Made by a program: the position numbers and the translations under genes | Shown: piece by piece, positions 584 to 17,729 of the stretch | How positions within the stretch are numbered: position 1 is the stretch's first letter | Layout of the letters: every line of letters starts with the position of its first letter | Origin: Patescibacteria group bacterium | GTDB taxonomy: Bacteria > Patescibacteriota > Patescibacteriia > UBA1558 > GWA2-36-10 | Direction of reading: 5' to 3' | NCBI GenBank assembly: GCA_018819405.1 | Contig: JAHJQF010000001.1 | Coordinates: forward strand, 290,097-354,096 | Length of the DNA stretch: 64,000 bases | Notes under the pieces: model-generated | Databases searched by the model: none | What the model was told of the DNA's origin: nothing | The model's input: only the letters and a program-made list of their open reading frames with translations

Positions 584-650
584 CAAAAAATTCCCAAACA
601 AAAAACAATCTCTAAAAGATTGTTTTATAATATGAATAGAAAATTCGATT

Positions 651-746
651 TCATACAACAGACAAGCGTATGCGAAGTCGTGATTGAGCCTATGTGGTAA
701 AATTCGCGTAGCGACCACATAGGCGAAAGAACGATTTGGGTGAGCG
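651..746. repeat. Site-A copy 1 (~95 bp: 5' arm CAACAGACAAGCGTATGCGAAGTC, variable covarying stem-loop, 3' box GATTTGGGTGAGCGG)
   Basis: Stem 688-697 (CCTATGTGGT) pairs with 713-722 (ACCACATAGG). The 3' box abuts the stop of minus ORF 749-1102. Confidence 0.8.
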
Positions 747-748
747 GA

Positions 749-1102
749 CTAAATATCTTCCATAATCATTTCTTCTACCGCACGTTGTAATTTAAATAAA
801 TCTATATTGTTTGTTTTAAAAGCAGGTGCAGGTTGATATACGGGATTTTTGAAATTAATTTTTTCTATATTTCCTTGCTCATCAAATTTAATATACCCTT
901 CTGTTAATGTGCTATCGGGGTCAACTCCATAATTATCTGATAAACCTTTGTGAAACTTAGAGGTTATAAATATAGTAAAATTTTCAGTAACAGAAAATAC
1001 CCAAGTCCGCTGTTCTCTATCAATATCTACTTTACGTAATTTTAATAGAGCCTTATAGTCTATTTTTTCTGGTGATGATGGATTTTCAAAATGTTCATTC
1101 AT
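749..1102 (-). CDS. hypothetical protein (array cargo)
   Basis: 117-aa ORF flanked by Site-A (3') and Site-B (5'). Confidence 0.5.
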   Translation of the reverse strand: MNEHFENPSSPEKIDYKALLKLRKVDIDREQRTWVFSVTENFTIFITSKFHKGLSDNYGVDPDSTLTEGYIKFDEQGNIEKINFKNPVYQPAPAFKTNNIDLFKLQRAVEEMIMEDI

Positions 1103-1125
1103 AGTATTTTATTTAGTCCGCGAAC

Positions 1126-1154
1126 CGCATACGCGGTGTTGGGTGATGTACGAC
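1126..1154. repeat. Site-B copy 1 (CGCGAACCGCATACGCGGTGTTGGGTGATGT)
   Basis: Reverse-complement of the Site-A 5' arm. Internal CCGC-ATAC-GCGG hairpin. Confidence 0.8.
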
Positions 1155-1168
1155 GAATTCCCAGAATT

Positions 1169-1570
1169 TTATTTATTAAAAGTTTGTTTTATTCTTTTTG
1201 CTATTTCTTCAGGATATAATAGAATATTATCTAAATTATCTAATTTTATCCATTCCAAATTATATTGGTTATTTGGATTATTTCTTCCAGTTTCAGGCCA
1301 ACCTAATTTAATTTTTCCTTCAAATGTTTTAGCTAAGAAATAATATCCGTAATGGTGCTCATCTTTATATTCCCAAAGTAATTTATCCAAAACTATGTCT
1401 AAATTAGTTTCTTCTTTTATTTCTCTAATAGCGGTTTCTTCAGATTTTTCGTTTTTTTCTATTGTTCCTCCAGGAAATGCATAATACTCGTTATCATTTT
1501 TAATTCTATGTATTAAAAGAATTTTTTCATCTTTGATTATAATTACTGCTGATCTTTTATGATATTGCAT
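1169..1570 (-). CDS. Nudix hydrolase
   Basis: Nudix box GGTIEKNEKSEETAIREIKEETNL (GX5EX7REUXEEXGU). Confidence 0.75.
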   Translation of the reverse strand: MQYHKRSAVIIIKDEKILLIHRIKNDNEYYAFPGGTIEKNEKSEETAIREIKEETNLDIVLDKLLWEYKDEHHYGYYFLAKTFEGKIKLGWPETGRNNPNNQYNLEWIKLDNLDNILLYPEEIAKRIKQTFNK

Positions 1571-1602
1571 AGTTTTAAAAAATTCTGGGAATGAGGAGTA
1601 TT

Positions 1603-1700
1603 TCGCCTAACAGACAAGCGTATGAGAAGTCACGAGTGACTGGAGGTGATAGAATCGCACGGAGTGCTATCACCGAAAGGAACGAGTGATTTGCGCGAAG
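1603..1700. repeat. Site-A copy 2
   Basis: CCTAACAGACAAGCGTATGAGAAGTC arm. Stem GGTGATAG (1645-1652) pairs with CTATCACC (1667-1674), loop AATCGCACGGAGTG. Box GATTTGCGCGAAG. Confidence 0.8.
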
Positions 1701-1713
1701 AGAAATAAAGTTT

Positions 1714-1753
1714 TTGCTTAATTATTGACTAATTACTATATAAATGATAGGGT
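1714..1753 (+). promoter_or_regulatory. putative promoter for ORF 1820-2146, with CTGGCTAGGCCAG palindrome at 1767-1781
   Basis: TTGCTT/TTGACT -35 candidates and a TATATA -10. Palindrome lies between promoter and RBS AAAGGAGGTG. Confidence 0.4.
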
Positions 1754-1819
1754 ATTTTATTAGTTCTGGCTAGGCCAGAGTAGTTCATTACTCTAAACCT
1801 CTGAAAGGAGGTGAAAAAT

Positions 1820-2146
1820 ATGTCTTCCAATTTGGTTGGTTTGAAACTCGATGGCTACACTGTCCAGAAGGTGTTCGAAGTCTTCAGGGTCGACGAAGAC
1901 GGCATGAAGGTCAAGTCAGTCGACTTCTTCATGGACGGTGGTGTAGCCACAGCTTGGACTCAAGGTCTGGCTGACCGCCACTTCCACAAGACCGTCGAAG
2001 TGCTCGTCATCAGCAACGGTGAAAGCCATTTCCTTTTCGGAGGAGAGGAAGTCAACATCCACGATGACACGAGTGCCCTTCTTCAGGTTCGACAGAAGGC
2101 TCTGTCCAAGCTGACTTCGGAAGAACGGGCTGTACTCGGCCTGTGA
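1820..2146 (+). CDS. hypothetical protein, high-GC, opposite strand to array
   Basis: ATG 1820 is 8 nt after AAAGGAGG. ~58% GC in a ~30% GC context. Own terminator at 2153-2191. Confidence 0.55.
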   Translation: MSSNLVGLKLDGYTVQKVFEVFRVDEDGMKVKSVDFFMDGGVATAWTQGLADRHFHKTVEVLVISNGESHFLFGGEEVNIHDDTSALLQVRQKALSKLTSEERAVLGL

Positions 2147-2152
2147 TCATTT

Positions 2153-2191
2153 GCCGCCTGGCCTGAAAACTGGGCGGCTCTTTTATTTTTT
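2153..2191 (+). terminator. rho-independent terminator
   Basis: GCCGCC-TGGCCTGAAAACTG-GGCGGC followed by a T-run. Confidence 0.65.
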
Positions 2192-2207
2192 AAAAAACTT
2201 TATTTCT

Positions 2208-2239
2208 CTTCGCCTCATACGCGGTGATAGATGATGACC
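2208..2239. repeat. Site-B copy 2 (variant CTTCGCCTCATACGCGGTGATAGATGATGACC)
   Basis: Shares the CATACGCGGTG core and the GATGAT/GATGT tail. Confidence 0.65.
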
Positions 2240-2251
2240 AATTCCATGGCG

Positions 2252-3004
2252 TTATAAATTATTAATTTTTTTATAGGTAGCTATACCCGTACAATGAAGT
2301 TGTTGTCCATCTAAGACATGGTCATACTTTATATTATTATTAGATATATATTCTATTAGCCAATTTTTGATGTCAGTATTTATAAATTTTAATAAATATT
2401 TAGTTTGGTTGTTTATGAAATTTATTATCTGTAGTGTCTCAACTTTTTTGCGACCTCTTTCATCAATATATGTTTTTTCTGGTCCATTACTATTTATCAT
2501 AGCAAATGACAATGGTTTCGTTCCAAATATGACTATTTGAGATTTGTAATGAATTATTTTTTCTCTTTGTTCTTTTAATTTGAAAATCCATTTTTTATTT
2601 TTGTCTAATATTTTTTTTAATGCAATGTCTATAGTAGGTTTTTTTTCTAACGATTTATATAAATCATGTATACTCATTTCTTGGTCTTGCGGATGAGCAG
2701 GGCCTGTGGGGGTTTTTAGATTTCTGGTATTTTTTGGCAATGTCTGCCATATTATATAAGCTATATCGTTTAGTAATATTCTTTGTCTTATTATAAAACT
2801 TTCTAGATCAGCTGCTATATTATAGTGGTTTGGTTCGTTTTTGTTAGTTTCAGAAATTATTCGATCGTAGTATAAAAAAAGTCTAGATAGTGACCAAAAA
2901 ATAGCATTTGTATTGAAATAATAATGTTTTTTGAAGTGTTGAAAGCCAAAATTGGTAAGCACATCAAAAATTGGCAATTCTAAATATTCATTTTTTCTTA
3001 TCAT
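2252..3004 (-). CDS. hypothetical protein (array cargo)
   Basis: 250-aa ORF with no recognisable motif. Confidence 0.5.
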   Translation of the reverse strand: MIRKNEYLELPIFDVLTNFGFQHFKKHYYFNTNAIFWSLSRLFLYYDRIISETNKNEPNHYNIAADLESFIIRQRILLNDIAYIIWQTLPKNTRNLKTPTGPAHPQDQEMSIHDLYKSLEKKPTIDIALKKILDKNKKWIFKLKEQREKIIHYKSQIVIFGTKPLSFAMINSNGPEKTYIDERGRKKVETLQIINFINNQTKYLLKFINTDIKNWLIEYISNNNIKYDHVLDGQQLHCTGIATYKKINNL

Positions 3005-3024
3005 ATATAATGGAATTGGTTTTC

Positions 3025-3120
3025 ATCTATCAGGCTAGTGTATGCGAAGTTCTGCTTGAATTTTATGCTAAAATAGCACGGAGTGCAAGCATAAAATGAA
3101 AAGTAGAATTTGGGTGGAGC
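3025..3120. repeat. Site-A copy 3
   Basis: Stem ATTTTATGCT pairs with AGCATAAAAT, loop AAAATAGCACGGAGTGCA. Box GAATTTGGGTGGAGC. Forms a ~195-bp composite with Site-B copy 3 that is duplicated at 14767-14962. Confidence 0.8.
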
Positions 3121-3186
3121 AGTGTTAGTTTAGTTTAAACTATATAAAAACAGATAAATATTACTTTACCTGTTCTTTGATATTGC

Positions 3187-3220
3187 TTCGCGAAACCGCA
3201 TACGCGGTGTTGGCTGATGT
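3187..3220. repeat. Site-B copy 3
   Basis: CGCGAAACCGCATACGCGGTGTTGGCTGATGT. Ends 2 nt before the stop of ORF 3222-4025. Confidence 0.8.
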
Positions 3221-3221
3221 T

Positions 3222-4025
3222 TTAATTAAATTTTGTCTTTAATTCTTCCAAAGTTTTTCGCATTAATTCATCTGCTTTTTTGCTTTTTTCTTGTATTTCT
3301 TCAATGGAGTTTGTTTTGTATAAATCTTCGATTTCCTGAACAACTTCTGGTGGCAAATCAACTGACGCATGTTTAAGACCTATGTTTGGCCACTGCGGAG
3401 AATAAAGAAGCCTCAATGCTTCAATAAGTTTGTCTAAAATTAGATCGTGATATATTTTGAGCGCATCAAGATAGTTTTCTCGTTTTAATTCTCGTTCTAG
3501 ACACATGTTACGAAGAGAAACTCGGGCTTCAATATTTTCGATTTGAGCTATAATATTTTTGCGTTCATTTTCTTCGCTTCCTGATTCAGTTTCTAAAATA
3601 CCTTTTTTGTCGAACAATGTGGTTTTACCCTGTGCTTTTAATTTCGTAGAGTCAGAGTATGTTTGCAGAGTAATATCGATAATTAAAAATTTTGATGTGC
3701 CCTGCACATGATAAAGCATTTTGGGCCAATCATATCCAGGTCGTGTATGTTCAAGTTTAAAATCAATATTCGACAATGCGGCTTCTATCGTTTGAATAAC
3801 GCTTTCTATATTTTCGTCTTCTATGACAAGACGTACATCGATATCAGAATATTCGTCCACGGTACCATGTACATCTGCTCCTTCAAGAAAAAAAGCAAAA
3901 ACAGATGAATTGCCTTCAAGAGCGCTATGAAGCTGATCAATAATTTCTTTTCTCTTCTCTATTGTATTTTCTGGTTTTTGTTCGTTTTCTTGCCCTATGT
4001 TTATAGGTAACTCGTTCTTATTCAT
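3222..4025 (-). CDS. nucleotidyltransferase-domain protein
   Basis: G-x(n)-DID motif (LEGADVHGTVDEYSDIDVRLV) typical of the Pol-beta-like NTase fold. Substrate unknown. Confidence 0.5.
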   Translation of the reverse strand: MNKNELPINIGQENEQKPENTIEKRKEIIDQLHSALEGNSSVFAFFLEGADVHGTVDEYSDIDVRLVIEDENIESVIQTIEAALSNIDFKLEHTRPGYDWPKMLYHVQGTSKFLIIDITLQTYSDSTKLKAQGKTTLFDKKGILETESGSEENERKNIIAQIENIEARVSLRNMCLERELKRENYLDALKIYHDLILDKLIEALRLLYSPQWPNIGLKHASVDLPPEVVQEIEDLYKTNSIEEIQEKSKKADELMRKTLEELKTKFN

Positions 4026-4045
4026 ATTTAAAATTTAATTAATAT

Positions 4046-4142
4046 TTCAGCTAACAGACGTGCGTATGCGAAGTCGTGACTGAGCGAATATGATAAAATT
4101 ATTTGAAATCATATTTGCGAAAGAATGATTTGGGTGAGCGAG
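4046..4142. repeat. Site-A copy 4
   Basis: AGCTAACAGACGTGCGTATGCGAAGTC arm. Stem AATATGAT pairs with ATCATATT. Box GATTTGGGTGAGCGAGCCC. Confidence 0.8.
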
Positions 4143-4151
4143 CCCTTTTTA

Positions 4152-4334
4152 TTATTTGTCTTTTTCTTCAGTAGGTGGCACATAAATAACATCTTTTTTA
4201 TTATTAGGATTTATGCCTTCGCTAATTAGGTAATCCTCGTGCTCTTTGTTAAGTTCAGAAACCTCTCTTGTAAAAATACGAAATCCGATATATGCCAGAG
4301 CAGGTACTATAGGTATAAGTAATTTCCAATCCAT
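4152..4334 (-). CDS. small membrane protein (60 aa)
   Basis: N-terminal TM helix. Flanked by Site-A and Site-B. Confidence 0.4.
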   Translation of the reverse strand: MDWKLLIPIVPALAYIGFRIFTREVSELNKEHEDYLISEGINPNNKKDVIYVPPTEEKDK

Positions 4335-4354
4335 ATTTTTTTGTTAATTATTTA

Positions 4355-4391
4355 GCTCGCGAACCGCATACGCGGTGATAGGTGATGTGAT
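4355..4391. repeat. Site-B copy 4
   Basis: AGCTCGCGAACCGCATACGCGGTGATAGGTGATGTGAT. Confidence 0.8.
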
Positions 4392-4409
4392 AAAAATTTT
4401 AATATTTTA

Positions 4410-5219
4410 TTACCAATAACCGTTTTGATTATTTTGCCTAGCATTCCTTTTTTTGAATTCTCTTTCTTCAATAGAATTATACAGCGCAGTTTTTAGGATT
4501 TTAATATCATTATTGTCTAGATAATTTAGAAAATCATCAATGGTCTTTTTTGATACAACATCAATTAGAAAATATTCTGGCTTGTCTTTATATGTGTATT
4601 CAACTTCAATTTCAAAATTATTTTTAATATCTTCATATTTATTACCATCACTAGCCGCTCGTTTAAATTTAGTGAAGTCAGGGACTAATATTAGTGGATA
4701 ATTTACAGTGTTGTAGTTTCCACCTCTTTTATTGGAGTAAAAGAGACTTGCATGCATGACTTCGTTTTTTGCTTTATCCAAGATCTTGTTATCATTTTCT
4801 GTACTAAATTCCTTTACGGCTTCATTATCTTTTAAATAATGGTGCATCTTATTTTCGTAATTTAGGTAAAAATCTTCTTGATTTTGAAGGATGGGATTAT
4901 TTTTTGCTAATTGTTTAGACTTTATTGGATCTTTATCTAAAAACCAAAATACTATATGTGGTTTAATATACTTACACTCTATTATTAATCTTATCGTTAA
5001 TGTCTCTGTAGAATTACTGAACATACCACCGCCAACTTGAATATTTTTTTCAGCAATTATATCAATTTCTCTAGGTTTATTTTCAACAGGATCATTATAG
5101 TGTGGGCTATTTGTCACTGTCCATTCTTTTTCTTCTAATAATTTTGAAATTGTTAAGTGAAAGTCATGTCCACTGTCTCCCATTATTTTTTCTATGATTT
5201 TACCAGTATCTTTTTCCAT
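4410..5219 (-). CDS. hypothetical protein, possible PD-(D/E)xK nuclease fold
   Basis: REIDIIAEK ... IIECKY resembles a D...ExK nuclease motif. Weak. Confidence 0.4.
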   Translation of the reverse strand: MEKDTGKIIEKIMGDSGHDFHLTISKLLEEKEWTVTNSPHYNDPVENKPREIDIIAEKNIQVGGGMFSNSTETLTIRLIIECKYIKPHIVFWFLDKDPIKSKQLAKNNPILQNQEDFYLNYENKMHHYLKDNEAVKEFSTENDNKILDKAKNEVMHASLFYSNKRGGNYNTVNYPLILVPDFTKFKRAASDGNKYEDIKNNFEIEVEYTYKDKPEYFLIDVVSKKTIDDFLNYLDNNDIKILKTALYNSIEEREFKKRNARQNNQNGYW

Positions 5220-5234
5220 AAAATTTTTATTATT

Positions 5235-5333
5235 TCATCTATCAGGACAGGGTATCCGAAGTTCCGAAGCGAATAGCGTGCTAAACTTTCTGCGAAGCAG
5301 AGCACGCAAATGAGCGAGGAATTTGGATGAGCG
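5235..5333. repeat. Site-A copy 5
   Basis: CATCTATCAGGACAGGGTATCCGAAGTTCC arm. Stem GCGTGCT pairs with AGCACGC. Box GAATTTGGATGAGCGGG. Confidence 0.75.
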
Positions 5334-5353
5334 GGTAAGAAAAATTATCCTTA

Positions 5354-5641
5354 TTAATTCCTAACAAATGAGCCTATTAAAGTAAGGATAGCCGTTATTG
5401 CATATAGAATAGAAAAGATTGTTCCGTGGGCATTTTTGATTTTCTTTTTTAAAATCAAATAAGGTATTATTTCAAGTATGAGTGTCATAAAAAGTATGCC
5501 AATAATGCCACCAAGTAATTGGAAGATATCCGAACCATTTATTGCCAGCGAAGCAATAACGGATATAATTAAGCCACTATATGCAAGGATTTTTACATAC
5601 ATAGGTGACTCTTTGAGGTTTAAATTTAGTCCCACTTTCAT
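5354..5641 (-). CDS. small membrane protein (95 aa)
   Basis: Three predicted TM helices. Confidence 0.45.
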   Translation of the reverse strand: MKVGLNLNLKESPMYVKILAYSGLIISVIASLAINGSDIFQLLGGIIGILFMTLILEIIPYLILKKKIKNAHGTIFSILYAITAILTLIGSFVRN

Positions 5642-5680
5642 AATTTTATATTAATTATTTTATTTGTAAAATTTTTCTTA

Positions 5681-5716
5681 CCTGCGAATCGGATACCCGA
5701 TGTTGGGCGATGTACA
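5681..5716. repeat. Site-B copy 5 (covarying variant TCGG-ATAC-CCGA)
   Basis: CCTGCGAATCGGATACCCGATGTTGGGCGATGTACAG. The 4-bp hairpin stem has switched from CCGC/GCGG to TCGG/CCGA while staying complementary. Confidence 0.75.
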
Positions 5717-5725
5717 GATTTTCCT

Positions 5726-6076
5726 TTAAATACCCCATTCTGATATTAGTTTTAAAATGGATGGCCATTGAGAAGTGAAGACCATAGCAATGATCACAAT
5801 TATCACACCTATAATGATTAAGCCGACGGGTCGTTCAAACCACGTTTTCATAGCATTCAAGTCCGACATAACCTTAGATGTTTTTATGTAGAGCGCAGGA
5901 TTGCTTCCAGAATTATTGATATATCCATTTGCTTTTAGAAACTCGTAGTAGATTTTTTGCGCATCACTACTACTTACATTTAAGCCATTTTGAAGGTCTT
6001 GAAAATTAAATCCAGCATCAGGTGTTTTTGAAACCCATTTAAGAATCTTTTTTATTGGAATATTTGCTATTTTCAT
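5726..6076 (-). CDS. hypothetical protein with C-terminal TM helix
   Basis: 116-aa ORF. Confidence 0.45.
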   Translation of the reverse strand: MKIANIPIKKILKWVSKTPDAGFNFQDLQNGLNVSSSDAQKIYYEFLKANGYINNSGSNPALYIKTSKVMSDLNAMKTWFERPVGLIIIGVIIVIIAMVFTSQWPSILKLISEWGI

Positions 6077-6102
6077 AAATTACACAATAAGGAAAATCTG
6101 TA

Positions 6103-6203
6103 TTTCGCCTAACAGACGTGGATTGCCGAAGTTGTGAGAGAGTGAAGTGGCTAAACTTTCGGCGGAGCCGAGCCACGAAACGAACGAGCAATTTGGATGA
6201 GCA
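6103..6203. repeat. Site-A copy 6
   Basis: CGCCTAACAGACGTGGATTGCCGAAGTTG arm. Stem GTGGCT pairs with AGCCAC, loop AAACTTTCGGCGGAGCCG. Box CAATTTGGATGAGC. Confidence 0.75.
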
Positions 6204-6205
6204 AA

Positions 6206-6694
6206 TTAATAAAAATATTTATTTAATACAAATAAACATTCAGGATGAAATTTTCCACCGTTGCTAATCATTTTTTTTATTTCCTCTTTTGTGAAAAATT
6301 GTACTTTTGTAACTTCATTAGGGTCAATATTAAATTCCCCATTATATTTTCCTTTAAAGAAAGTGCTAAAATGTTTGCGCCCATCATCAAGTTCAATGTA
6401 ATGTTTGCCCAATAATTCTAATTCAGTTTTGACACCAATTTCTTCAAAAAGCTCTCTTTTAGCACATCCAAAATAGTCTTCCCCAGAATCTACATGACCA
6501 CCGCCACTACAGTCCCAATAGGAAGGGTAGTTATAACTATTTTCCGAACGTAATTGGAGAAGAATTTCATCTTCATCATTTATAATCATAATATTAGACA
6601 CTCTCAAAATATCTGATTTTTTAGCAGACTTTCTATCGATTATTTTTAGTACTTTATCATTTTTGTCTACTACTTCTACTAGTTCTAATTTCAT
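6206..6694 (-). CDS. Nudix hydrolase
   Basis: Nudix box GGGHVDSGEDYFGCAKRELFEEIGV. Confidence 0.7.
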   Translation of the reverse strand: MKLELVEVVDKNDKVLKIIDRKSAKKSDILRVSNIMIINDEDEILLQLRSENSYNYPSYWDCSGGGHVDSGEDYFGCAKRELFEEIGVKTELELLGKHYIELDDGRKHFSTFFKGKYNGEFNIDPNEVTKVQFFTKEEIKKMISNGGKFHPECLFVLNKYFY

Positions 6695-6735
6695 ATTAAA
6701 TAATTAAGAGTTTTTTAATAAATATTTTTATAAAT

Positions 6736-6795
6736 TTGCGAATCGGCAATCCTGTGTTGGGCGACCCGATAGGGCGGAGCGAAGCGGAGAGTAAG
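6736..6795. repeat. Site-B copy 6 with appended G-rich tail
   Basis: TTGCGAATCGGCAATCCTGTGTTGGGCGAC followed by CCGATAGGGCGGAGCGAAGCGGAGAG. Confidence 0.65.
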
Positions 6796-6802
6796 TATTA
6801 AT

Positions 6803-7333: not shown

Positions 7334-7367
7334 ATTTTTTTATTAATAAAATTTAAATTAATACTTA

Positions 7368-7405
7368 TTTCGCCTAACAGACAAGCGTATCTGATGTTTG
7401 TCCGC
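7368..7405. repeat. Site-A copy 7 (truncated; 5' arm only)
   Basis: CGCCTAACAGACAAGCGTATCTGATG present. No stem-loop or 3' box before the stop of ORF 7414-8331. Confidence 0.6.
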
Positions 7406-7413
7406 CACTGAAT

Positions 7414-8331: not shown

Positions 8332-8366
8332 AGAAATATATTATTATATTATTAGCGGACAAATAT

Positions 8367-8408
8367 GGGCGAAGCGTAGCGTAGCCAGATACGCGGTGTT
8401 AGACGCTG
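8367..8408. repeat. Site-B copy 7 preceded by G-rich segment GGGCGAAGCGTAGCGTAGCC
   Basis: AGATACGCGGTGTTAGACGCTG. Overlaps the stop codon of ORF 8399-8824. Confidence 0.6.
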
Positions 8409-9716: not shown

Positions 9717-12290
9717 TTATCTATTTTCAGAAAAACGTATATCTCTTGCATGCAACATTGTTTTTAGGCTTTCAGTAAATTTTAAGGATTCTTTTAGTGC
9801 TTCCTTCTTTGTATCTCCTTTTGGAATTGGAATTAAGAAGTATTCATTCCAAGCGTCTGTTTTTAATTCAGGTTGACTGGCTGTCTGAGCTAAATAATAT
9901 CCTTGTTTTTTGCATAAATCGCTTCTTAACGAATACCATAACAGCATACTTTCTTCTAAATTTTTTGTTTTAAATACCCAAAAGCCAGATGTACAAATAA
10001 AATTTTCCATTTCTTTTGGTACCAGCATAACAGTTCCTCGTGAACTAATGTTTATCGCCATTAGAACATCATTTTCTTGAATTTTGTATTGTCCACGCGA
10101 TGGTAGGTTTTCAAAATTGTCAGTTAAGTAGTTTATTGGCAAGCCATAGTCAGTTACGTCACTAATTTCAATATAATGAAATTGTTTGTTTTTAAATTCA
10201 TTTTTTTGCAGGCCATTAATTTTAGCTCTTTTTTTTACGTCTATACCTTTTTTAATTTCAATTTTATCTTTGTCGGCGAGCTCTAAAATTTTATTCCAGG
10301 TATTTTTTAACTCAGGCGCATAGAAAAAAGCATCTAATCTATCAATTATTAATTCTTCTGGTGGAGTAATCCAAATTTGTTCCGGACATTCTAAGTTTTC
10401 ATTTTTGTTTTGATTTTCTTTAATTGTTGGTTTCAGTATCCCTGTTCGTTTCCATTCTAAATAAGATACTAAAATATCAGTTAAATTATTACGCTCTAAG
10501 GTGTCTCTGAGGGAGTTGTCGTGTCCAATATTATTACTTATAGACATAAAAATGTGACTTTGTCGTTCATCATCATTTTGTTTTTTCCGTAGATGTAAAA
10601 TTGACGTTTTTATATTTGCCTTTGCCTTGAAGAATGCGTTAAATGGTAAAGAATGAACTCCTAAAATTATAAATTTATCTACTATCCAGTTTCGAACATT
10701 TTGTTGATTTTTCCCGTTTAATACTGTGTCGTCAAGAACCAGTAATATTTCGCCACCTGATTTCAGTAATTTCCAATATCGATCCAAAAATAAAATATTT
10801 GATTTTGCACTTTTCATCCCGTCTGCAATATGGCGCTGGTCTAATATATCTGTTTCATCTTCATTATTTCTGTCATACACCATGCTAAACGGAGGGTTTG
10901 TTAGTACCAAGTCAAAGCTATTTTCCATGATTTTTGTTTGCATTGCTTCAATTTCAGATTTTCTTTCATCTTTCATGTCTTCTGCAATTTTTGGAAAATC
11001 GTCCAATCCATCGCCGTGAAATATGTGACTACCACCATCGCCGTGTAAATACATATTAATTCTAGCAATTCTTGCAACACGTTCATTTGCTTCAATGCCA
11101 AATAATTGTTCATTACAGATCTTGTTTTTAATTATTTCTTTTTCTGTATTACTAAAGCGTGTATCATCTCTCAATCCAGATAATAAATAAGCCATAACTT
11201 CAATGAGAAAACCAGCTGTTCCTGCACATGCATCCATAACTTTTGGCGGATTTTTAATATCCACATTACATAAGGCAATTCGGGTCATAAAGTCAACAAC
11301 TGGTCGGGGTGTAAAATATTGCCCCAATGCTCGTCCTCTTACGGCAGCGTTTAAGAACACTTCAAACATTCGTCCGTTAAGGTCTTCATCAATTGAGCTA
11401 AGATTAATTTTTTCAAATATTTTTATTAGATCTTGGCAGGTGGAGGCACTCAATTTAAAAGTTTCATTTTCTTCAAAAATTCTACGTTTTTTGTCTCTAT
11501 GTATTGCAGCTTCTAAATCGTCTCGTAATTTATTAAAAAGAATGTCTCGCACAGGATGTTTTGATGTTGATTTTTGAGCATCTAACCACTCGCTGGTAAG
11601 TGGAATTTTATATGTTGGGATGTCTTCATTATTTTGTCCTCTTTTTTTATCCTCATTAATCTTAATGAATATAAATTTACAAAATTCAAAAAAAGCATCA
11701 GTAGGGCTAAGTTTTTCCCTCTTCCAAATTAAATCATGCGTTTGCTGAAAGATTTTATTCAATTCGTCAGGCGAAACGATTTCAAATTTTAATCCATCAC
11801 CGTGCACTACTTCATCAGCAGTTTTATACTTGATATAACTTCTTAGATTGGTATAGGCTGGTGAACCACTGGCAAAATCTGATAACTGTAATGTTACGAT
11901 TGGTGTACTGCTGTCCCATTTGAATAACGAAGTTATAAAACCATTACTGATTAATAACCACTTGACCTTTTCTTTGTCTAATTTATCTCGGTTATAACTA
12001 AGAGCATAGCTTGCAGCTTGTCCCCATGCTTCGTTTATGGATTTATTTGGATCCTTAGCCTCTACTACTACTTTTGCATTTCCATTGCTACCAAGTAATA
12101 AAAAATCTATTTCAATTTTTATTTTTTTGGATCCATCATTAGCCATCAAATTAAGGAGTCTTTTTTTGGGGATAACAGATTGATCTGTATAGCCGAGATC
12201 ATTAAATAATTTTGCCAAGAGCCTAGTTTCTACCTCGGCTTCGGTTTTTAAGTCTTTTAAATTAAGTTGAAATAGAGTACTTTGGCTCAT
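9717..12290 (-). CDS. Type IIG-like restriction-modification enzyme / N6-adenine DNA methyltransferase with HsdR-N-type N-terminal domain
   Basis: Motif I DACAGTAGFL, motif IV LTNPPF, an HsdM-like helical domain, an N-terminal Type-I-R N-terminal-like domain and a long C-terminal extension. 857 aa. Confidence 0.7.
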   Translation of the reverse strand: MSQSTLFQLNLKDLKTEAEVETRLLAKLFNDLGYTDQSVIPKKRLLNLMANDGSKKIKIEIDFLLLGSNGNAKVVVEAKDPNKSINEAWGQAASYALSYNRDKLDKEKVKWLLISNGFITSLFKWDSSTPIVTLQLSDFASGSPAYTNLRSYIKYKTADEVVHGDGLKFEIVSPDELNKIFQQTHDLIWKREKLSPTDAFFEFCKFIFIKINEDKKRGQNNEDIPTYKIPLTSEWLDAQKSTSKHPVRDILFNKLRDDLEAAIHRDKKRRIFEENETFKLSASTCQDLIKIFEKINLSSIDEDLNGRMFEVFLNAAVRGRALGQYFTPRPVVDFMTRIALCNVDIKNPPKVMDACAGTAGFLIEVMAYLLSGLRDDTRFSNTEKEIIKNKICNEQLFGIEANERVARIARINMYLHGDGGSHIFHGDGLDDFPKIAEDMKDERKSEIEAMQTKIMENSFDLVLTNPPFSMVYDRNNEDETDILDQRHIADGMKSAKSNILFLDRYWKLLKSGGEILLVLDDTVLNGKNQQNVRNWIVDKFIILGVHSLPFNAFFKAKANIKTSILHLRKKQNDDERQSHIFMSISNNIGHDNSLRDTLERNNLTDILVSYLEWKRTGILKPTIKENQNKNENLECPEQIWITPPEELIIDRLDAFFYAPELKNTWNKILELADKDKIEIKKGIDVKKRAKINGLQKNEFKNKQFHYIEISDVTDYGLPINYLTDNFENLPSRGQYKIQENDVLMAINISSRGTVMLVPKEMENFICTSGFWVFKTKNLEESMLLWYSLRSDLCKKQGYYLAQTASQPELKTDAWNEYFLIPIPKGDTKKEALKESLKFTESLKTMLHARDIRFSENR

Positions 12291-12379
12291 ATTGGTTTAA
12301 TTTAGTTTTTATACTATTTATAATACAAGTATAATTCATTTAAAATAAAAACACAATTCTGAGATATAAATAAATCGTT

Positions 12380-12435
12380 TCCGAAGCGTAGCGGAGGAAA
12401 CATCTGCTCCTGCCGACAGGCAGGTTCCCCTCCTA
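12380..12435. repeat. GC-rich nested hairpin (GGAGG...CCTGCCGACAGGCAGG...CCTCC)
   Basis: Perfect inner hairpin CCTGCC-GACA-GGCAGG nested in a GGAGG/CCTCC outer stem. Begins with the CGAAGCGTAGCGG segment shared with 8367-8386. Confidence 0.5.
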
Positions 12436-12514
12436 AAAAAAGAAAAAGAAATTTGTAATTTTTAAAAATAATTGTTTGTTAAATGCCGAAAAAGAAAAGG
12501 AATATTTCAGCTAA

Positions 12515-12603
12515 CAGACGTGCGTATCTGAAGTTCCGAAGCGAGTGGCGTGGTAAAATTGCGCGGAGCGCACCACGCAAACGAGCGAGGAATTTGGGTG
12601 AGT
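12515..12603. repeat. Site-A copy 9
   Basis: AGCTAACAGACGTGCGTATCTGAAGTTCC arm. Stem GCGTGGT pairs with ACCACGC, loop AAAATTGCGCGGAGCGC. Box GAATTTGGGTGAGTAAG. Confidence 0.8.
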
Positions 12604-12606
12604 AAG

Positions 12607-13065
12607 TTAAATAAAATCTTTATACTGCTCTTCAATAGGAGGATTGGAAAAATAAGCCAATACACTATTACCAGATTCCATTAATTCTATCATTTCAAAA
12701 CCGTCTCTAGGTATTAATTTAAAATTATTTTTGCCCAAATTTTCTTTTTTAAAATTTTCGTAATTTTTCACTGTAAAATCTGCATCGCCCCTTTCTTTTT
12801 TATTAGGATCAAATTCTCTAATTTTTAATACTCTAATAGTTCTTCCTATAGGCTCATTTAATATGAATATAGGGCCACTGTATGTGTCTTTCAATTTTTC
12901 ACCAAATTTTTTTACTTCTTCAATCAATTCCTTATATTCTTCTTCAGTTTGGGCAAAAATACAAGCCCAAGTCGCTATAGCACCATGTTCTTTGGTATAT
13001 TTATCTTTAAGAGCAATAGCTCTCATTAGTATTTCTTGAACGATAATTTTTTTTAAATCTACCAT
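12607..13065 (-). CDS. hypothetical protein
   Basis: 152-aa ORF. Confidence 0.45.
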   Translation of the reverse strand: MVDLKKIIVQEILMRAIALKDKYTKEHGAIATWACIFAQTEEEYKELIEEVKKFGEKLKDTYSGPIFILNEPIGRTIRVLKIREFDPNKKERGDADFTVKNYENFKKENLGKNNFKLIPRDGFEMIELMESGNSVLAYFSNPPIEEQYKDFI

Positions 13066-13087
13066 AGTTTTATAAAGATTTTATTTA

Positions 13088-13124
13088 ACTTACGAACCAG
13101 ATACGCGGTGATAGGTGATGTACA
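13088..13124. repeat. Site-B copy 9
   Basis: ACTTACGAACCAGATACGCGGTGATAGGTGATGTAC. Confidence 0.75.
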
Positions 13125-13182
13125 TTTTTTCTTAAACTTTAAAGAGTTTTATTTCTTAAAAGTAGAATTTGATTTTTATCAA

Positions 13183-13240
13183 TTTTGGCGAGGGCGCAGA
13201 GGGGGTTAGGGGGTGAATGCGCCCGAGCCAAAGGCGCTTT
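13183..13240 (+). repeat. G-rich element copy 2 (GGCGAGGGCGCAGAGGGGGTTAGGGGGTGAATGCGCCCGAGCC)
   Basis: Homologous to 9664-9710. Preceded by an AAGTAGAATTTGA box remnant. Confidence 0.6.
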
Positions 13241-13255
13241 GTCTAATTTATAATT

Positions 13256-14077
13256 TTATTTTGCTTCTACACTTTTTATTATTTGTTTAGTTAACTCATT
13301 AAAGATTACAAAAAACATTTGAGAGTCCTGTGGTTCTAAAAAGATTTTTAATCTTAATTGTTTTTCGGGGTGTATTAGATTTCTATATTCCATTATAGTA
13401 GTGCCTATGTCTTTTGCTGGTTTTCTCACCCAGCCCATAGAGAATGATACATCAATAAAATTACTTAGTGTCCACTCCGATAAATTACGAGGTTTTTTAG
13501 TTTTTGGGTCTATTGGGGTTGTTTTTTGTTTAAAAATAGTACTTTTATCTGTTAATTTATTTATGCGCGCAAGAAAAAATGCTTCCAGTAATCCACCCAT
13601 CATTACTGTGGCAGCAAGAGGTGCTACATTGATGCAGTTTTGGATTTCATCGAAACGACTATATATGATTTGTTGCATGTAGTCATCTTGTACAAGATTT
13701 TCTAATGAAGTAATATTTTTATTTTCTACTTTTGGTTTTTGGTTTGTTATTGTTTCGGATTGCAATTTTATTAGTTTACCTCTTAATCCCTTAATAAGGG
13801 ATAGGTATTTATTTTTACTAGTAGCTGAATGCGACCATTCATTTATTAGTAGATAGTCATCATTAATTTTAGTATATAGTTCAGAATCTACGCATAAAGG
13901 AGAAAAAATATTTTTATATTTTTCGAACCACGCTAAAGAAATTGTTCTTATAAACTCACGTGTAGATTTTGAACGTATTTGATCTCCGCTTTCTTTTCGC
14001 AATATTTTTTTAAGACGTTCAGCTTCATCTAGTAAGGTAATTAAAATATTTGAAATATTGCTGTCGTTAATTGCCAT
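13256..14077 (-). CDS. hypothetical protein
   Basis: 273-aa ORF. Confidence 0.45.
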   Translation of the reverse strand: MAINDSNISNILITLLDEAERLKKILRKESGDQIRSKSTREFIRTISLAWFEKYKNIFSPLCVDSELYTKINDDYLLINEWSHSATSKNKYLSLIKGLRGKLIKLQSETITNQKPKVENKNITSLENLVQDDYMQQIIYSRFDEIQNCINVAPLAATVMMGGLLEAFFLARINKLTDKSTIFKQKTTPIDPKTKKPRNLSEWTLSNFIDVSFSMGWVRKPAKDIGTTIMEYRNLIHPEKQLRLKIFLEPQDSQMFFVIFNELTKQIIKSVEAK

Positions 14078-14088
14078 AGCTAGAGTGA

Positions 14089-14643
14089 TTATTTTTTCTT
14101 TTTAGTATTTCTTACAATTTTTTTTCTTTTCTTTGATGTAGTTGCAGTACTTTCTGTATTTGGAAGAACCATTGCAACAAGATTTTCTCCAACACTGTTT
14201 AATCTGTATGCACCTCTTGAAATATTGTCTAAATACCCAGCTTTAGTTGCATTTACTAAAGTTTGATCTGGACGTTTTATCCTAGTTCTCCCCACAAGTC
14301 TTGTGGCCTCTATTAAATCATTCATTGATATGGTGTCCTTTTTTTCACTTGCTTCAAATTGATAATAGTAGGCAACAGCGGCAGCAAAATGATTATCGGA
14401 AGATGGTTTTTTTCCATCAATAAAAGTTTTTATATCTCTAGATGTTGTATGTTGAGTCGATGCATTTTGAGTTATGTTATTAAGGATATCAGGCTTTATC
14501 TCTTGTGTAATTCCGGGTATATTAATATTTAATTTTTCGCATGCCCATCGCATGGTTTGTAGTTGTTCGTCTTCTGGAAGTGTTTGTATTAAGTTGACGA
14601 TTTCACGCAATACGTCATAGGAATCTTTTTTTTGATCACTCAT
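14089..14643 (-). CDS. hypothetical protein with lysine-rich C-terminal tail
   Basis: 184 aa ending KKRKKIVRNTKKKK. Co-modular with 13256-14077 (11-nt gap). Confidence 0.45.
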   Translation of the reverse strand: MSDQKKDSYDVLREIVNLIQTLPEDEQLQTMRWACEKLNINIPGITQEIKPDILNNITQNASTQHTTSRDIKTFIDGKKPSSDNHFAAAVAYYYQFEASEKKDTISMNDLIEATRLVGRTRIKRPDQTLVNATKAGYLDNISRGAYRLNSVGENLVAMVLPNTESTATTSKKRKKIVRNTKKKK

Positions 14644-14766
14644 ATTGTTTAGTTGTTAGTTAATATTATATTTATTTATTTCAACCCCCTAACTAAAATA
14701 GATAAAAATCAAATTTGTATAATTTAAATTTTAGCTTATCTTAGCCAAAAAGGAAAAATGTATGTC

Positions 14767-14868
14767 ATCTATCAGACGTGCGTATGCGAAGTTCTACTTG
14801 AATTTTATGCTAAAATAGCACGGAGTGCAAGCATAAAATGAAAAGTAGAATTTGGGTGGAGCTGTTTT
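14767..14868. repeat. Site-A copy 10 (duplicate of copy 3)
   Basis: Identical stem-loop ATTTTATGCT-AAAATAGCACGGAGTGCA-AGCATAAAAT. Confidence 0.8.
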
Positions 14869-14929
14869 AGTTTAGTCTAAACTATATAAAAACAGATAAA
14901 TTTTACTTTACCTGTTCTTAAATAATGCT

Positions 14930-14962
14930 TCGCGAAACCGTATACGTAGTGTTGTCTGATGT
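14930..14962. repeat. Site-B copy 10 (degenerate: CGCGAAACCGTATACGTAGTGTTGTCTGATGTCG)
   Basis: Position-equivalent to Site-B copy 3 inside the duplicated composite. Confidence 0.65.
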
Positions 14963-15015
14963 CGAATTTTCTTAGACATTTACTATTATTTAGGGGAATT
15001 TTTGGGTTTTTAAGG

Positions 15016-15044
15016 TTGACAAGATATAGTGTTTATGATATATT
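15016..15044 (+). promoter_or_regulatory. sigma70-like promoter (TTGACA-17-TATATT)
   Basis: Paralogous copy of the promoter at 18-46. Confidence 0.6.
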
Positions 15045-15113
15045 ATTTTGTTAACTAAAATCGGTCAATTCAGGCCATTGGTTGTGTTCCTCAAACTTGG
15101 AAGGAGTAATTTC

Positions 15114-15548
15114 ATGACTACCACCGTTGTTTCCCAGGGTAGCTTGTTCTGGAACAAGCTCGGCAAGTGGCAGATGCTGGCAGTTCTGTTAACTTTGGTG
15201 GTTTTCTTCGTTGCCCTAGGAATGGGTAATAAGGAGACTGCCGGCACCATCTCTGCTCTCACGCTTGCTGCCGTCACTCTGACTGTTCTCACTGTCGCCG
15301 CCCTCGTTCTCGCTGTCCCTTCCGCCGTTCCCTTCGTATTCCTTTTCGCTGCTGCTACTGCCAGCATCGCCTTCGCTTTCGTTAAAGGTGTTGCCATTAT
15401 TCCCGGCATCGCCTTCGCCGTCGCTGAAGGAATTGCTGTCACCCTTGCCGTCGCTGAGGTGAAGAAGTACGGCATCAGGAAGAGGATTGTTTGGTTTTCC
15501 TTCGCGGCGGAGTTTGCGTGTATCGTCCTTCCCATGTCACTGGCTTAG
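15114..15548 (+). CDS. small polytopic membrane protein, high-GC, paralog B
   Basis: N-terminus MTTTVVSQGSLFWNKLGKWQ matches paralog A's MSTAVVSQARLFWRKLGWWQ. C-terminus KKYGIRKRIVWFSFAAEF matches RQYGIKKRVVWLSSTVEF. Alanine- and valine-rich core. Confidence 0.6.
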   Translation: MTTTVVSQGSLFWNKLGKWQMLAVLLTLVVFFVALGMGNKETAGTISALTLAAVTLTVLTVAALVLAVPSAVPFVFLFAAATASIAFAFVKGVAIIPGIAFAVAEGIAVTLAVAEVKKYGIRKRIVWFSFAAEFACIVLPMSLA

Positions 15549-15563
15549 GCCAGCACCCTCCAC

Positions 15564-15597
15564 GAGACCCGGGTTAGAATAGGGTCTCTTTTTTTCC
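15564..15597 (+). terminator. rho-independent terminator
   Basis: GAGACCC-GGGTTAGAATAG-GGTCTC followed by T9. Confidence 0.7.
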
Positions 15598-15664
15598 AAA
15601 AAATTCCCAAACAAAAAACAATCTCTAAAAGATTGTTTTATTATATGAATAGAAAATTCGATTT

Positions 15665-15703
15665 CATACAACAGACCGCCATATGCGAAGTTGCGCAGGC
15701 CGC
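15665..15703. repeat. Site-A copy 11 (truncated variant CATACAACAGACCGCCATATGCGAAGTTGCGCAGGCCGCC)
   Basis: Arm present, no 3' box. Confidence 0.55.
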
Positions 15704-15722
15704 CTACCTTTAACTTAGGCAC

Positions 15723-15968
15723 TTAGTTAATTATAATAGCAATGAATTGTAAACAAAATCCTATACTATATAGAGTGAAGGCTAATAATCCAACCATTTT
15801 ATCTTTTAGATGTTTAATTTGTGTATAATTTCCTTTATCGTCCATTTTTATAATATAATCATCATTAACATTTCTAGTAATGTTAAGATAGGAAATTAAC
15901 AATATTAAAGAAGCTCCAGTATTTATTATTAAGCCAATTAGGTTTAGTATATTTGAAGAATTAGTCAT
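15723..15968 (-). CDS. small membrane protein (81 aa)
   Basis: Two TM helices. Confidence 0.45.
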   Translation of the reverse strand: MTNSSNILNLIGLIINTGASLILLISYLNITRNVNDDYIIKMDDKGNYTQIKHLKDKMVGLLAFTLYSIGFCLQFIAIIIN

Positions 15969-16026
15969 ATTTTATTAGTTAGTTAAAGAATTAGGCCAAG
16001 CAATTTTGGTGAAGCGCCTGACAAGG

Positions 16027-16063
16027 CGCTGAACCGCATATGGGGTGTTAGCTGATGTAAATA
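16027..16063. repeat. Site-B copy 11
   Basis: GCGCTGAACCGCATATGGGGTGTTAGCTGATGTAAAT. Confidence 0.7.
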
Positions 16064-16098
16064 AATTCAACGAGCATAGCGAGTTGTTTAAATGAATT

Positions 16099-16710
16099 TT
16101 ATTTTTTTGGTTTTATTGACCCTAAAACAATATAATAAAAAATTCTTTGTATAAATACGAATATTAGGATTATTATAATATTAGTCAGTAAAAAAGATTT
16201 TAAGAAATTTTCAGAAGAATATACTGGAGTTATATCGAATAGATGGTTGGTGTAACTTATTGGTGAGTTAATAGATTTTTCCTGGTCAATTCTATTTTGC
16301 CACTTTTGATCATCATTACTTGCATCAAATAATGGCTCATCATTTTTTATGTCAAAGTATCTTTGTAAATCGTAGATACTAATGTTTGCTGTAAATTTAG
16401 AATTACATTTTTTTAATATATTTTCTATGGCATATTCATTACTTGGTTCCGAATAAAAAGTTTTATAATTGTAGTTTTTTAAACTATTTTCTAGGCCATA
16501 ATATATTGACAGTTCATTTAATTTATAAGTTACTTTACCAGTGCTTCTATTGCATGTCAGAGTAGATTTTTCTAAGTCTAATTTATTATATTTATTCTGA
16601 AAGACTTCATAATTACCGATGCTAATTGTTATGACAAAAACAATAATAAATATTACTTTTATAAGTCTATACCAAGCCTTATTATTTAGGTTTAAAATGG
16701 TTTTTTCCAT
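16099..16710 (-). CDS. membrane protein (N- and C-terminal TM helices)
   Basis: 203-aa ORF. First module next to the recombinase. Confidence 0.5.
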   Translation of the reverse strand: MEKTILNLNNKAWYRLIKVIFIIVFVITISIGNYEVFQNKYNKLDLEKSTLTCNRSTGKVTYKLNELSIYYGLENSLKNYNYKTFYSEPSNEYAIENILKKCNSKFTANISIYDLQRYFDIKNDEPLFDASNDDQKWQNRIDQEKSINSPISYTNHLFDITPVYSSENFLKSFLLTNIIIILIFVFIQRIFYYIVLGSIKPKK

Positions 16711-16774
16711 ATTTATTAAGGTTAAAAAATAAAATTCATTTAAATATTCGGCGTTAGCCGAATAAAGTTATTTA

Positions 16775-16795
16775 TTTCAGCTAACAGTGTGTTTG
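16775..16795. repeat. Site-A half-site next to the recombinase gene (ATTTCAGCTAACAGTGTG)
   Basis: Only the conserved TTTCAGCTAACAG core is present. Lies 70 nt upstream of the recombinase ATG. IR ATTCGGC-GTTA-GCCGAAT at 16747-16764 and a TTGACA at 16831 are in the same intergenic region. Confidence 0.5.
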
Positions 16796-16862
16796 TGCAC
16801 CTATTGACATCGTAGCTCAAATTAGCCAATATGTAAATATTAAGCATTAATCACAAAGTATT

Positions 16863-17729
16863 ATGAAAAGCGATGAAAAGGGGCTACAAAAGTCCCAGTT
16901 TTTAGCCAATAGTCATCCTCTGGCTAGCCTGGCTCAGGAGCTCATTATCAGGGGGTTTTCTGGGCGCACCATCAAGAGCTATTTGTCTCACAACCAGCGA
17001 TTTTTGGACTGGACTGGCAAGTCGGCTAGAGATATTAGTAGTCAGGACGTCAAAGATTATCTCCTGTATCTCAAAAGCCAAAATTATTCCAATACCTCCT
17101 TAAATAGTGTTATCTCATCTCTCAAGTTTTATTATGGACAGATTCTGCATCGGAAGCTGTTTTTTAGTATTCGTCGGCCGAAAAAAGAAAAATTTTTGCC
17201 GATTGTTTTGACGCGTCAGGAAATCATCAAAATTATCAACTGCGCGCACAATCTAAAACACAAATTATTATTGTCACTTCTCTATGGTTCTGGTCTGAGA
17301 GTGTCAGAAGTAGTCAAAATAAAAATAAGTCATTTAGATTTGCAGAGCAGGAGTCTCTTGGTCAAAGATAGCAAAGGTGCCAAAGACAGATATACATTGC
17401 TAAGTGGCATAAGCATAAAATTTTTAAATATTTATTTACCAAAATTACCAGCCAACCAAAAATATCTATTTAGTGGACAGTCTGGTCAAAGTCATTTGAG
17501 TCAAAGAAGCGCTCAAAAAGTATTTGATCAGGCCCTTGAAAAATCAGGTCTAAAAAAAGACGCCAGTTGCCACAGCCTGCGTCATTCCTTTGCTACTCAT
17601 CTTTTGGAAGCGGGGACAGATATCAGGTATATCCAAAAATTACTTGGTCATCAAAATATCAAAACAACTGAAATCTATACTCAGGTGGCTCGTGATTTTT
17701 TTCGGGGCATCAAAAGTCCACTTGATTAA
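16863..17729 (+). CDS. tyrosine site-specific recombinase (XerC/XerD-like, phage-integrase family)
   Basis: Box I GLRVSE, HSLRHSFATHLL (HxxR), catalytic Tyr in TTEIYTQV. 288 aa. Transcribed divergently from the cassette-like array. Confidence 0.85.
   Translation: MKSDEKGLQKSQFLANSHPLASLAQELIIRGFSGRTIKSYLSHNQRFLDWTGKSARDISSQDVKDYLLYLKSQNYSNTSLNSVISSLKFYYGQILHRKLFFSIRRPKKEKFLPIVLTRQEIIKIINCAHNLKHKLLLSLLYGSGLRVSEVVKIKISHLDLQSRSLLVKDSKGAKDRYTLLSGISIKFLNIYLPKLPANQKYLFSGQSGQSHLSQRSAQKVFDQALEKSGLKKDASCHSLRHSFATHLLEAGTDIRYIQKLLGHQNIKTTEIYTQVARDFFRGIKSPLD

Follow-up and report, generated by a model that had tools for sequence, protein, structure and literature searches.

A stretch of 64000 nucleotides from a Patescibacteria genome, hereafter the window, begins with a dense array of short gene modules that ends next to the gene for a tyrosine recombinase. 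This locus is likely to be a chromosomal, integron-like gene-capture platform of Patescibacteria that would recombine DNA in the form of folded single strands. The recombinase of 288 amino acids, encoded on the plus strand at 16863-17729, where an earlier note on the same DNA had placed it, is transcribed divergently from the cassette array (1-16785), whose cargo lies mostly on the minus strand and which extends past the left end of the window, where a duplicate of one of its modules (14962-15661) starts at base 7. The locus is integron-like in its working, yet lacks the feature by which integrons are defined, the additional domain of the integrase IntI.

The modules are delimited by two kinds of conserved sites, denoted A and B. 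There are 23 such sites within 648-16787, namely, 11 full A sites, one A half-site and 11 B sites, in agreement with the 12 and 11 copies counted previously, and they alternate strictly (A-B-A-B), an order with a combinatorial chance of 1 in 1.35 million. A position-weight scan of the window retrieved the 22 full sites, all of them in the array, with none in the remaining 47 kb and none in shuffled sequence, and an Rfam scan of the window at gathering thresholds yielded two tRNAs only, with no RNA family at the A or B sites. The sites separate 22 intervals, of which those running from A to B are referred to as type 2 and those running from B to A as type 1.

All sites are given here as they read on the plus strand. 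A conserved sequence of ~70 nucleotides, the A-extension, which can form a hairpin, follows nine of the 11 A sites; with this extension, the A sites occupy positions 648-746 (core 648-680), 1600-1700 (core 1600-1632), 4044-4140 (core 4044-4076), 5232-5333 (core 5232-5264), 6102-6203 (core 6102-6134), 9097-9222 (core 9097-9129, with TGTTATAAT in the loop) and 12504-12604 (core 12504-12536), whereas those at 7367-7399 and 15661-15693 lack it. The B sites are at 1119-1149, 2207-2237, 4358-4388, 5683-5713, 6737-6767, 8379-8409, 9585-9615, 13091-13121 and 16028-16058; plus-strand terminators precede the second of these (2153-2178) and that at 9585-9615 (9541-9564), and in the site at 6737-6767 an insertion of ~25 nucleotides separates the outer arm from the module-specific repeat. 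The remaining A cores, starting at 3020 and 14762, and the remaining B cores, ending at 3220 and 14962, bound two gene-free, attC-like A-to-B units of 201 nucleotides each (3020-3220 and 14762-14962) that are 92% identical.

The A and B sites are two halves of one hairpin-forming, attC-like site. The A site consists of the outer arm ATTTCAGCTAAC, six variable nucleotides (for example, AGACGT), the inner arm GCGTATGCG and a terminal AAGT; the B site, CCGCATACGC GGT GTTAGCTGATGT, is the reverse complement of A, with three rather than six central nucleotides. In terms of Xer-type geometry, B is an 11-6-11 site of the dif type, and A is an 11-9-11 site in every copy, in the window and in its relatives alike. 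Thus, the two related elements that the earlier note saw at the module boundaries are both present, but as inverted complements that make up a single site, and its 95-bp version of the A site is accounted for by the A-extension that trails most of the copies. Its statement that the sites are neither canonical attC nor canonical dif is too strong given the dif geometry of B and the attC-like fold of A with B.

The partnership of the halves can be gleaned from their arms. Rare variants of the inner arm (ATTGCCG, ATATGCG, GTATGAG, GTATCCG) are common to an A site and the next B site rightward, and the outer arms are common to a B site and the next A site, with the match running on for 10-14 module-specific nucleotides. 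In counts taken over the array of the window and six related arrays, the inner arms form Watson-Crick pairs at 322 of the 360 positions between partners, compared with 205 of 310 between non-partners, and the 12 nucleotides past the outer arm pair in 82% of the cases in partners, compared with 33% in non-partners. Therefore, each interval is bracketed by an inverted repeat of its own, and a unit circularised from A to A has one self-complementary site of 40-45 bp with a small bulge. Indeed, when the outer arm of one A site was joined in silico to the inner arm of the preceding A site, the product paired with the B site between them over 40-45 bp with a small bulge. In all 11 units, the simulated circle junction yields a pairing energy with B of -22 to -34 kcal/mol, as against -13 to -22 kcal/mol for the unrearranged A sites of the array. 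The stem formed by the paired halves is bulged, like that of attC, and its ends resemble R boxes (RYYYAAC / GTTRRRY-like).

The short type-2 units, which in related genomes often span 97-220 nucleotides and hold no gene, fold into a long stem that comprises the outer arms, a small asymmetric bulge and the inner arms and leads into a three-way junction, with folding z-scores of -4.4 to -9.1 against shuffled sequences. In an RNAalifold analysis of 21 short units from nine arrays, the inner stem has nine pairs, with compensatory changes at most of these and one broken cell in 189. The two strands differ: in 21 of the 21 short units, the plus strand forms the more stable fold (mean gain of 4.6 kcal/mol under DNA parameters), and the mismatches between partner outer arms are of the G.T type 55 times on the plus strand and four times on the minus strand. 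The plus strand is antisense to most of the cargo and so holds the position of the 'bottom strand', the recombining strand of integron attC sites. In form, the units resemble an attC site, with stem, bulge, covariation and plus-strand stability, whereas the length (97 to >1000 nucleotides), the genes in the loop and the position of the bulge are atypical.

These properties bear on a different reading, namely, that the modules are shuffled by double-stranded Xer-type recombination as in the pdif modules of Acinetobacter plasmids, so that the intervals would be independent modules flanked by inverse, hairpin-free 28-31-bp sites recombining A with A and B with B. The alternation of inverted sites, the genes in every interval, the canonical 11-6-11 spacing of B and of the site next to the recombinase, the Xer-like recombinase itself, the resemblance of both A and B to exchange points in some comparisons and the occurrence of one gene family in either type of module are all compatible with such shuffling, and a study on dif modules describes an alternating pattern of C-modules and D-modules exactly as seen here (PMC13141974). 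However, the A centre, three nucleotides longer than that of B, is odd for a double-stranded core site, the module-specific complementarity reaches 10-25 nucleotides past any plausible protein-binding arms, the G.T mismatches are one-stranded, and the strand that carries them is also the better folding one in all 21 units. All four properties are neither needed nor expected in double-stranded recombination and therefore count against it, making this explanation rather unlikely. The Acinetobacter modules share with the present array the alternation of inverse Xer-type sites, with two module classes, and the cargo of single accessory genes, reshuffled between replicons. They differ in that their sites are uniformly 28 bp, of the form XerC-6-XerD, a pattern that B fits but A, with its 9-nucleotide centre, does not, and are served by the XerC and XerD of the host, with no dedicated adjacent recombinase, attI-like platform, module-specific extended inverted repeats or strand asymmetry.

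The boundary between the array and the recombinase gene lies within a site. The half-site between them, which the earlier note gave as 16775-16795, is confirmed, at 16774-16787, and is part of an attI-like 11-6-11 site (16774-16805, plus strand) in which the outer arm (16774-16785) comes from the first cassette and is followed by the conserved platform, with a degenerate box resembling an inner arm at the short, B-type spacing. The outer arm differs from genome to genome and agrees with the B site in the first cassette (here, the one ending at 16058). Nucleotide homology between genomes starts at the half-site (16773-16775) or, among 10 genomes, right after its outer arm (16785/16786), and the sequence beyond the outer arm is conserved through the recombinase gene. 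Thus, as in integrons, an attI-type site beside the recombinase gene marks the start of the variable array. The rest of the platform up to the start of the recombinase gene (16806-16862) contains TTGACA, the 16-bp palindrome TAGCTnAAATTAGCTA and divergent promoter-like hexamers, the promoter elements being consensus matches only. The palindrome is conserved and overlaps these hexamers, that is, it sits in an operator position; the equivalent position in integrons is taken by a LexA box.

By its scores, the recombinase resembles both archaeal XerA and IntI. It passes the family cut-off of the archaeal XerA (NCBIfam NF040815, XerA_Arch), and just so, with 228.6 bits against a cut-off of 220; the scores are below the cut-offs for the integron integrases (203.8 against 265 for TIGR02249 and 140 against 435 for PRK15417) and well below those for the XerC and XerD families (~187-188 against ~330-335). 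Compared with proteins of solved structure, it scores 145 bits with Pyrococcus XerA (PDB 4a8e), 141 with VchIntI4 (2a3v) and 80 with XerD. XerA, its best sequence match, is also equal to it in size and domain layout, but XerA serves to resolve chromosome dimers at one dif site, with no array of cassettes, and the C-terminal G-x-x-SPL tail of the present recombinase aligns with that of IntI4. The alignment with VchIntI4 is split, with residues 180-209 of the query opposite residues 169-239 of IntI4, so that ~40 residues have no counterpart, which bears out the earlier claim that the IntI-specific insertion is absent. In integron integrases, this insertion contacts extrahelical bases and is thought to be necessary for reading the extrahelical bases of folded attC sites; in its absence, the present system is not a canonical integron. 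Published definitions of integrons demand the additional domain (PMC9668308; PMC8138268).

An Xer-like enzyme next to a dif-like half-site could also be a housekeeping recombinase, the half-site being the chromosomal dif and the array a pile of elements of the IMEX kind (integrative mobile elements exploiting Xer). In single-recombinase Xer systems (XerS, XerH), dif lies immediately upstream of the xer gene, and the CTX phage enters dif as a folded single strand. Moreover, the window contains no second recombinase gene, and Xer-related recombinases of the candidate phyla radiation (CPR) have been proposed as stand-ins for Xer (PMC8138268). Against this, the sign of the GC skew does not change across the locus in L061 (+0.15/+0.08) and L023 (+0.16/+0.17), the two relatives in which both flanks are visible; these flanks of only 5-10 kb make for a weak comparison, which suggests that the site lies away from a skew switch or terminus, where the single conserved dif of an XerA-type system would be located. 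Furthermore, the outer arm of the half-site follows the first cassette and varies by genome, unlike a conserved dif arm, and the units encode single accessory genes, with no phage or plasmid functions among the products. We consider this explanation improbable. The integration of CTX-phi at dif resembles the reaction considered below, with an Xer-family enzyme acting on a folded single strand with paired inverted half-sites and an unpaired centre, exchange of one strand and replicative resolution; the differences are that the phage genome integrates once, at dif, via XerC/D, with no cassette array served by a dedicated recombinase, and that the present locus seems to be away from a skew switch.

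The link between the array and the recombinase is supported by comparison with related genomes. More than 100 clusters of recombinase homologues, at 54-91% identity, were identified among species-representative genomes, in metagenomes and in a protein collection, and all those with an organism name come from Patescibacteria. In about 20 related genomes of this group, the recombinase gene adjoins an array of this kind. An alternating array in the same orientation is found upstream of the recombinase gene wherever upstream sequence exists (L001, L004, L005, L007, L009, L011, L034, L038 and L059-L062) and likewise in three loci with recombinases at 46-51% identity (L013, L015 and L023). Taken together, 22 loci contain 115 sites, in one orientation, in 114 kb upstream of the recombinase gene, compared with none in 209 kb downstream, and each of the 22 has a single recombinase gene in physical linkage with the array. 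The possibility raised in the earlier note that such sites are scattered with no relation to the recombinase is thus not borne out in these loci, and its proposal that the cassette array goes together with the neighbouring recombinase is supported. The downstream flanks consist of syntenic housekeeping DNA, which in the window includes ribonucleotide reductase. Many contigs stop within 50-250 nucleotides of the recombinase gene, as would be expected if the repeats break assemblies; in the closest relative, P0002 (91% identity), and in a second assembly of the same strain, the contigs also break at the array. Homologues from outside CPR, namely, those of L014 (Brevinematales) and of the metagenome contigs L041, L042 and L044, at 45-48% identity, and of L021 (Bacteroidales), at 38% identity, have no array next to them. 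These proteins contain additional N-terminal sequence and represent a different subfamily, and hence carry no information on the ancestral dif.

The content of the arrays is hypervariable, as had been proposed. Hardly any cargo is common to arrays of different genomes, and genomes with recombinases that are ~80% identical carry unrelated cargo, so that the strict conservation of module content and order that the earlier note named as a sign of mere regulatory motifs is not observed. Where modules are shared, the genome comparison suggests turnover of cassettes. The homology of the duplicated module in the window stops inside an A site, past the outer arm plus AGAC; an empty type-1 module is adjacent to the attI-like site in L006 and appears twice at internal positions in L007; and L001 and L007 have a type-2 gene module in common, with unrelated neighbours on either side. 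The array of L061 consists of exactly one unit, A-gene-B-gene-attI, and the outer arm of its distal A site has no partner, as would be left by the insertion of one A-to-A circle at attI.

This distribution also bears on the view that the repeats are regulatory or structural elements (promoter or terminator modules, repetitive extragenic palindromes or small RNAs) inside an island of accessory genes. The conserved -10-like TAWAAT in the A-extension and the terminator-like hairpins in the short units speak for such a role, and the structures could equally form in RNA from the plus strand. However, regulatory repeats are hardly expected to lie, across 22 loci, exclusively on one flank of a single recombinase gene, to contain the boundary between conserved and variable DNA, to be the points at which homologous modules break, or to have arms that covary with the flanked module rather than as a single unit, and we regard this explanation as highly improbable.

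Three specific roles for parts of the sites were considered and rejected. The A-extension does not appear to be, in general, a minus-strand promoter of the next gene: the conserved motif is on the plus strand, and the fit to TTGCCC-17-TATAAT on the minus strand works in the loci L004 and L009 but fails in the copies of the window. A short plus-strand peptide starting at the conserved TTTGG(G/A)TGAG is not supported, with frames of 3-10 codons that are unconserved and a motif that belongs to the stem. Inversion of the shufflon type between A and B is at odds with the single orientation that is kept across all genomes and with the unequal lengths of the A and B centres. A standard sigma-70 promoter scan of the array was uninformative (87 matches, with 73 expected).

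Given a layout that matches that of integrons in the divergent recombinase, the boundary attI, the top-strand cargo, the pairing of L and R boxes, the bulge and the better-folding bottom strand, a folded plus strand is proposed as the substrate of recombination. Under this model, the recombinase and the double-stranded attI-like site at 16774-16805 would form the conserved platform, on which cassettes are stacked leftward by site-specific recombination. Pairing of A and B on the plus strand would yield a stem resembling a Xer-type site of 11-6-11 geometry, with some three additional unpaired bases on the A side. The recombinase would bind this folded stem and cut the A strand at ...TAA/C, beside the outer arm; the cut single strand would be exchanged with attI or with another folded site; and replication would resolve the junction, as it does for integrons and for the integration of the CTX phage. 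The moving unit would extend from one A site to the next, and the circle would be a dumbbell with a long perfect stem and two loops, either or both of which may bear genes. The GC skew was computed on the recombinase-sense strand for the right flanks (17730-64000 in the window); it is positive in 11 of 13 of them, and therefore, the locus has a preferred orientation relative to replication; although the flanks are short, the skew suggests that the plus strand is the lagging-strand template in these 11 loci, and its folding would therefore be favoured.

Several observations weigh against the integron-like interpretation. The IntI-specific additional domain around patch III is absent; TAWAAT always occupies the loop of the A-extension on the plus strand, which the model does not explain; the stems must close loops of up to 2.9 kb; and the plus-strand G.T pairs, being compatible with G.U, would equally fit RNA transcribed from that strand. 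In addition, B too looks like an exchange point in two comparisons, which is not predicted by strict bottom-strand recombination at R' only; either the opposite strand is used from time to time, or both strands are exchanged in genuine Xer fashion, as in the dif modules of Acinetobacter. In two type-2 modules of the window that carry plus-strand ORFs ending in strong plus-strand terminators, TAWAAT may be an ordinary promoter.

The cargo of the array is largely encoded on the minus strand, as noted previously, apart from the two A-to-B intervals just mentioned and a plus-strand ORF at 15048-15548. Genes occupy both types of intervals, and NUDIX hydrolases, two of which had been recognized from the sequence, are found in each (1169-1570 in a B-to-A module and 6206-6694 in an A-to-B module, both on the minus strand). 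The Type IIG-like restriction-modification enzyme predicted earlier is confirmed in a B-to-A module (9717-12290, minus strand), and an A-to-B module encodes the PADLOC candidate defence protein PDC-S18 (DUF5655; 7414-8331, minus strand; E = 8e-131). For the predicted nucleotidyltransferase (3222-4025), there is a match, albeit a sub-threshold one. A two-gene type-1 cassette (13256-14643) encodes a product of 184 aa, with a weak sub-threshold match to the AbiEi antitoxin, followed by a protein of 273 aa; PADLOC found nothing in these two genes, which may constitute a toxin-antitoxin or abortive-infection system such as those that stabilise large arrays of integrons. The plus-strand ORF at 15048-15548 is the conserved ORF of the B-to-A module 14962-15661 and encodes a 150-166-aa protein without an assigned function that recurs in the cassette copy at 82-531 and in L007 (8540-9025), where it lies immediately downstream of the recombinase gene, outside the array; long ORFs on the opposite strand overlap these genes.

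Related arrays contain larger cargo. In L060, a type-1 cassette of 4.8 kb (97-4882) encompasses genes for an Eco47II-type restriction enzyme, a DNA methylase, an AAA/SMC-like ATPase and one more protein. Part of this cassette recurs in the array of L009 (5648-7889) with 84% protein identity even though the recombinases of the two loci are clearly different; therefore, cassettes can hold whole defence operons and move between lineages. The attI-adjacent module of L059 (8455-9839), a locus of a Nomurabacteria relative, carries parts of a diversity-generating retroelement, namely, the bAvd accessory protein and a reverse transcriptase. Outside the array, the window contains a block of 50-52% G+C (46000-50300) in a genome with ~35% G+C. 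Its minus-strand genes code for enzymes of sugar modification, namely, a DegT-type aminotransferase, a metalloenzyme, a GFO/IDH/MocA oxidoreductase and a methyltransferase, and a family-2 glycosyltransferase gene adjoins them; this block is probably a horizontally acquired island for glycan synthesis.

The likeness to integrons extends across the entire locus: a tyrosine recombinase divergent from the array, an attI-type site exactly where conserved DNA gives way to variable DNA, cassettes stacked one way that carry small accessory and defence genes, a chromosomal location beside housekeeping genes, and imperfect inverted-repeat sites with R-box-like ends (RYYYAAC ... GTTRRRY-like), a covarying L-box stem, unpaired bases and a better-folding strand. 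The R boxes match across the gene, as a crossover at R' predicts. The differences are equally specific. Here, the IntI-specific domain is missing from the recombinase, whose scores fall short of the IntI family cut-offs, and the halves of a site are 97 to >1000 nucleotides apart, with real genes in many of the loops. The stem continues for 10-25 nucleotides past the R and L boxes, the asymmetry is due to three bulged nucleotides in the central spacer, the site includes a conserved hairpin that bears a -10-like motif, and the hosts are Patescibacteria. The earlier note regarded the system as distinct and undescribed; the absence of the IntI domain does set it apart, but its working logic is that of an integron, with nothing categorically new. 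Full-text searches, within the literature accessible to them, for integrons, attC sites and cassette arrays in CPR/Patescibacteria, or for integron-like systems with Xer-type enzymes, yielded no description of it. It is conceivable, with slightly less than an even chance in our estimate, that a lineage of Xer/XerA-like recombinases without the extra domain runs a full integron-type system on folded single-stranded sites, with dumbbell cassettes of two loops in which the recombination site itself may enclose a gene, and a promoter-like hairpin that perhaps exposes or primes the recombining strand, either as an independent invention or as a relative on the way from Xer to IntI.

The combination of integron architecture, folded and bulged sites and a plain Xer-like enzyme bears on the origin of integrons from Xer recombinases, and the patescibacterial system tests whether the extra domain of IntI is truly required for single-strand recombination. 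Programs that search for integrons rely on the IntI domain and on attC sites of less than ~200 nucleotides and so would miss this class of platforms, and the array accounts for the frequent breaks of patescibacterial assemblies at the locus. For the cell-dependent Patescibacteria with their very small genomes, the array represents a concrete route for rapid exchange of defence and other accessory genes. If the locus is indeed an integron-type system with an Xer-like recombinase, these minimal-genome bacteria would own a dedicated gene-capture device stocked with defence genes.

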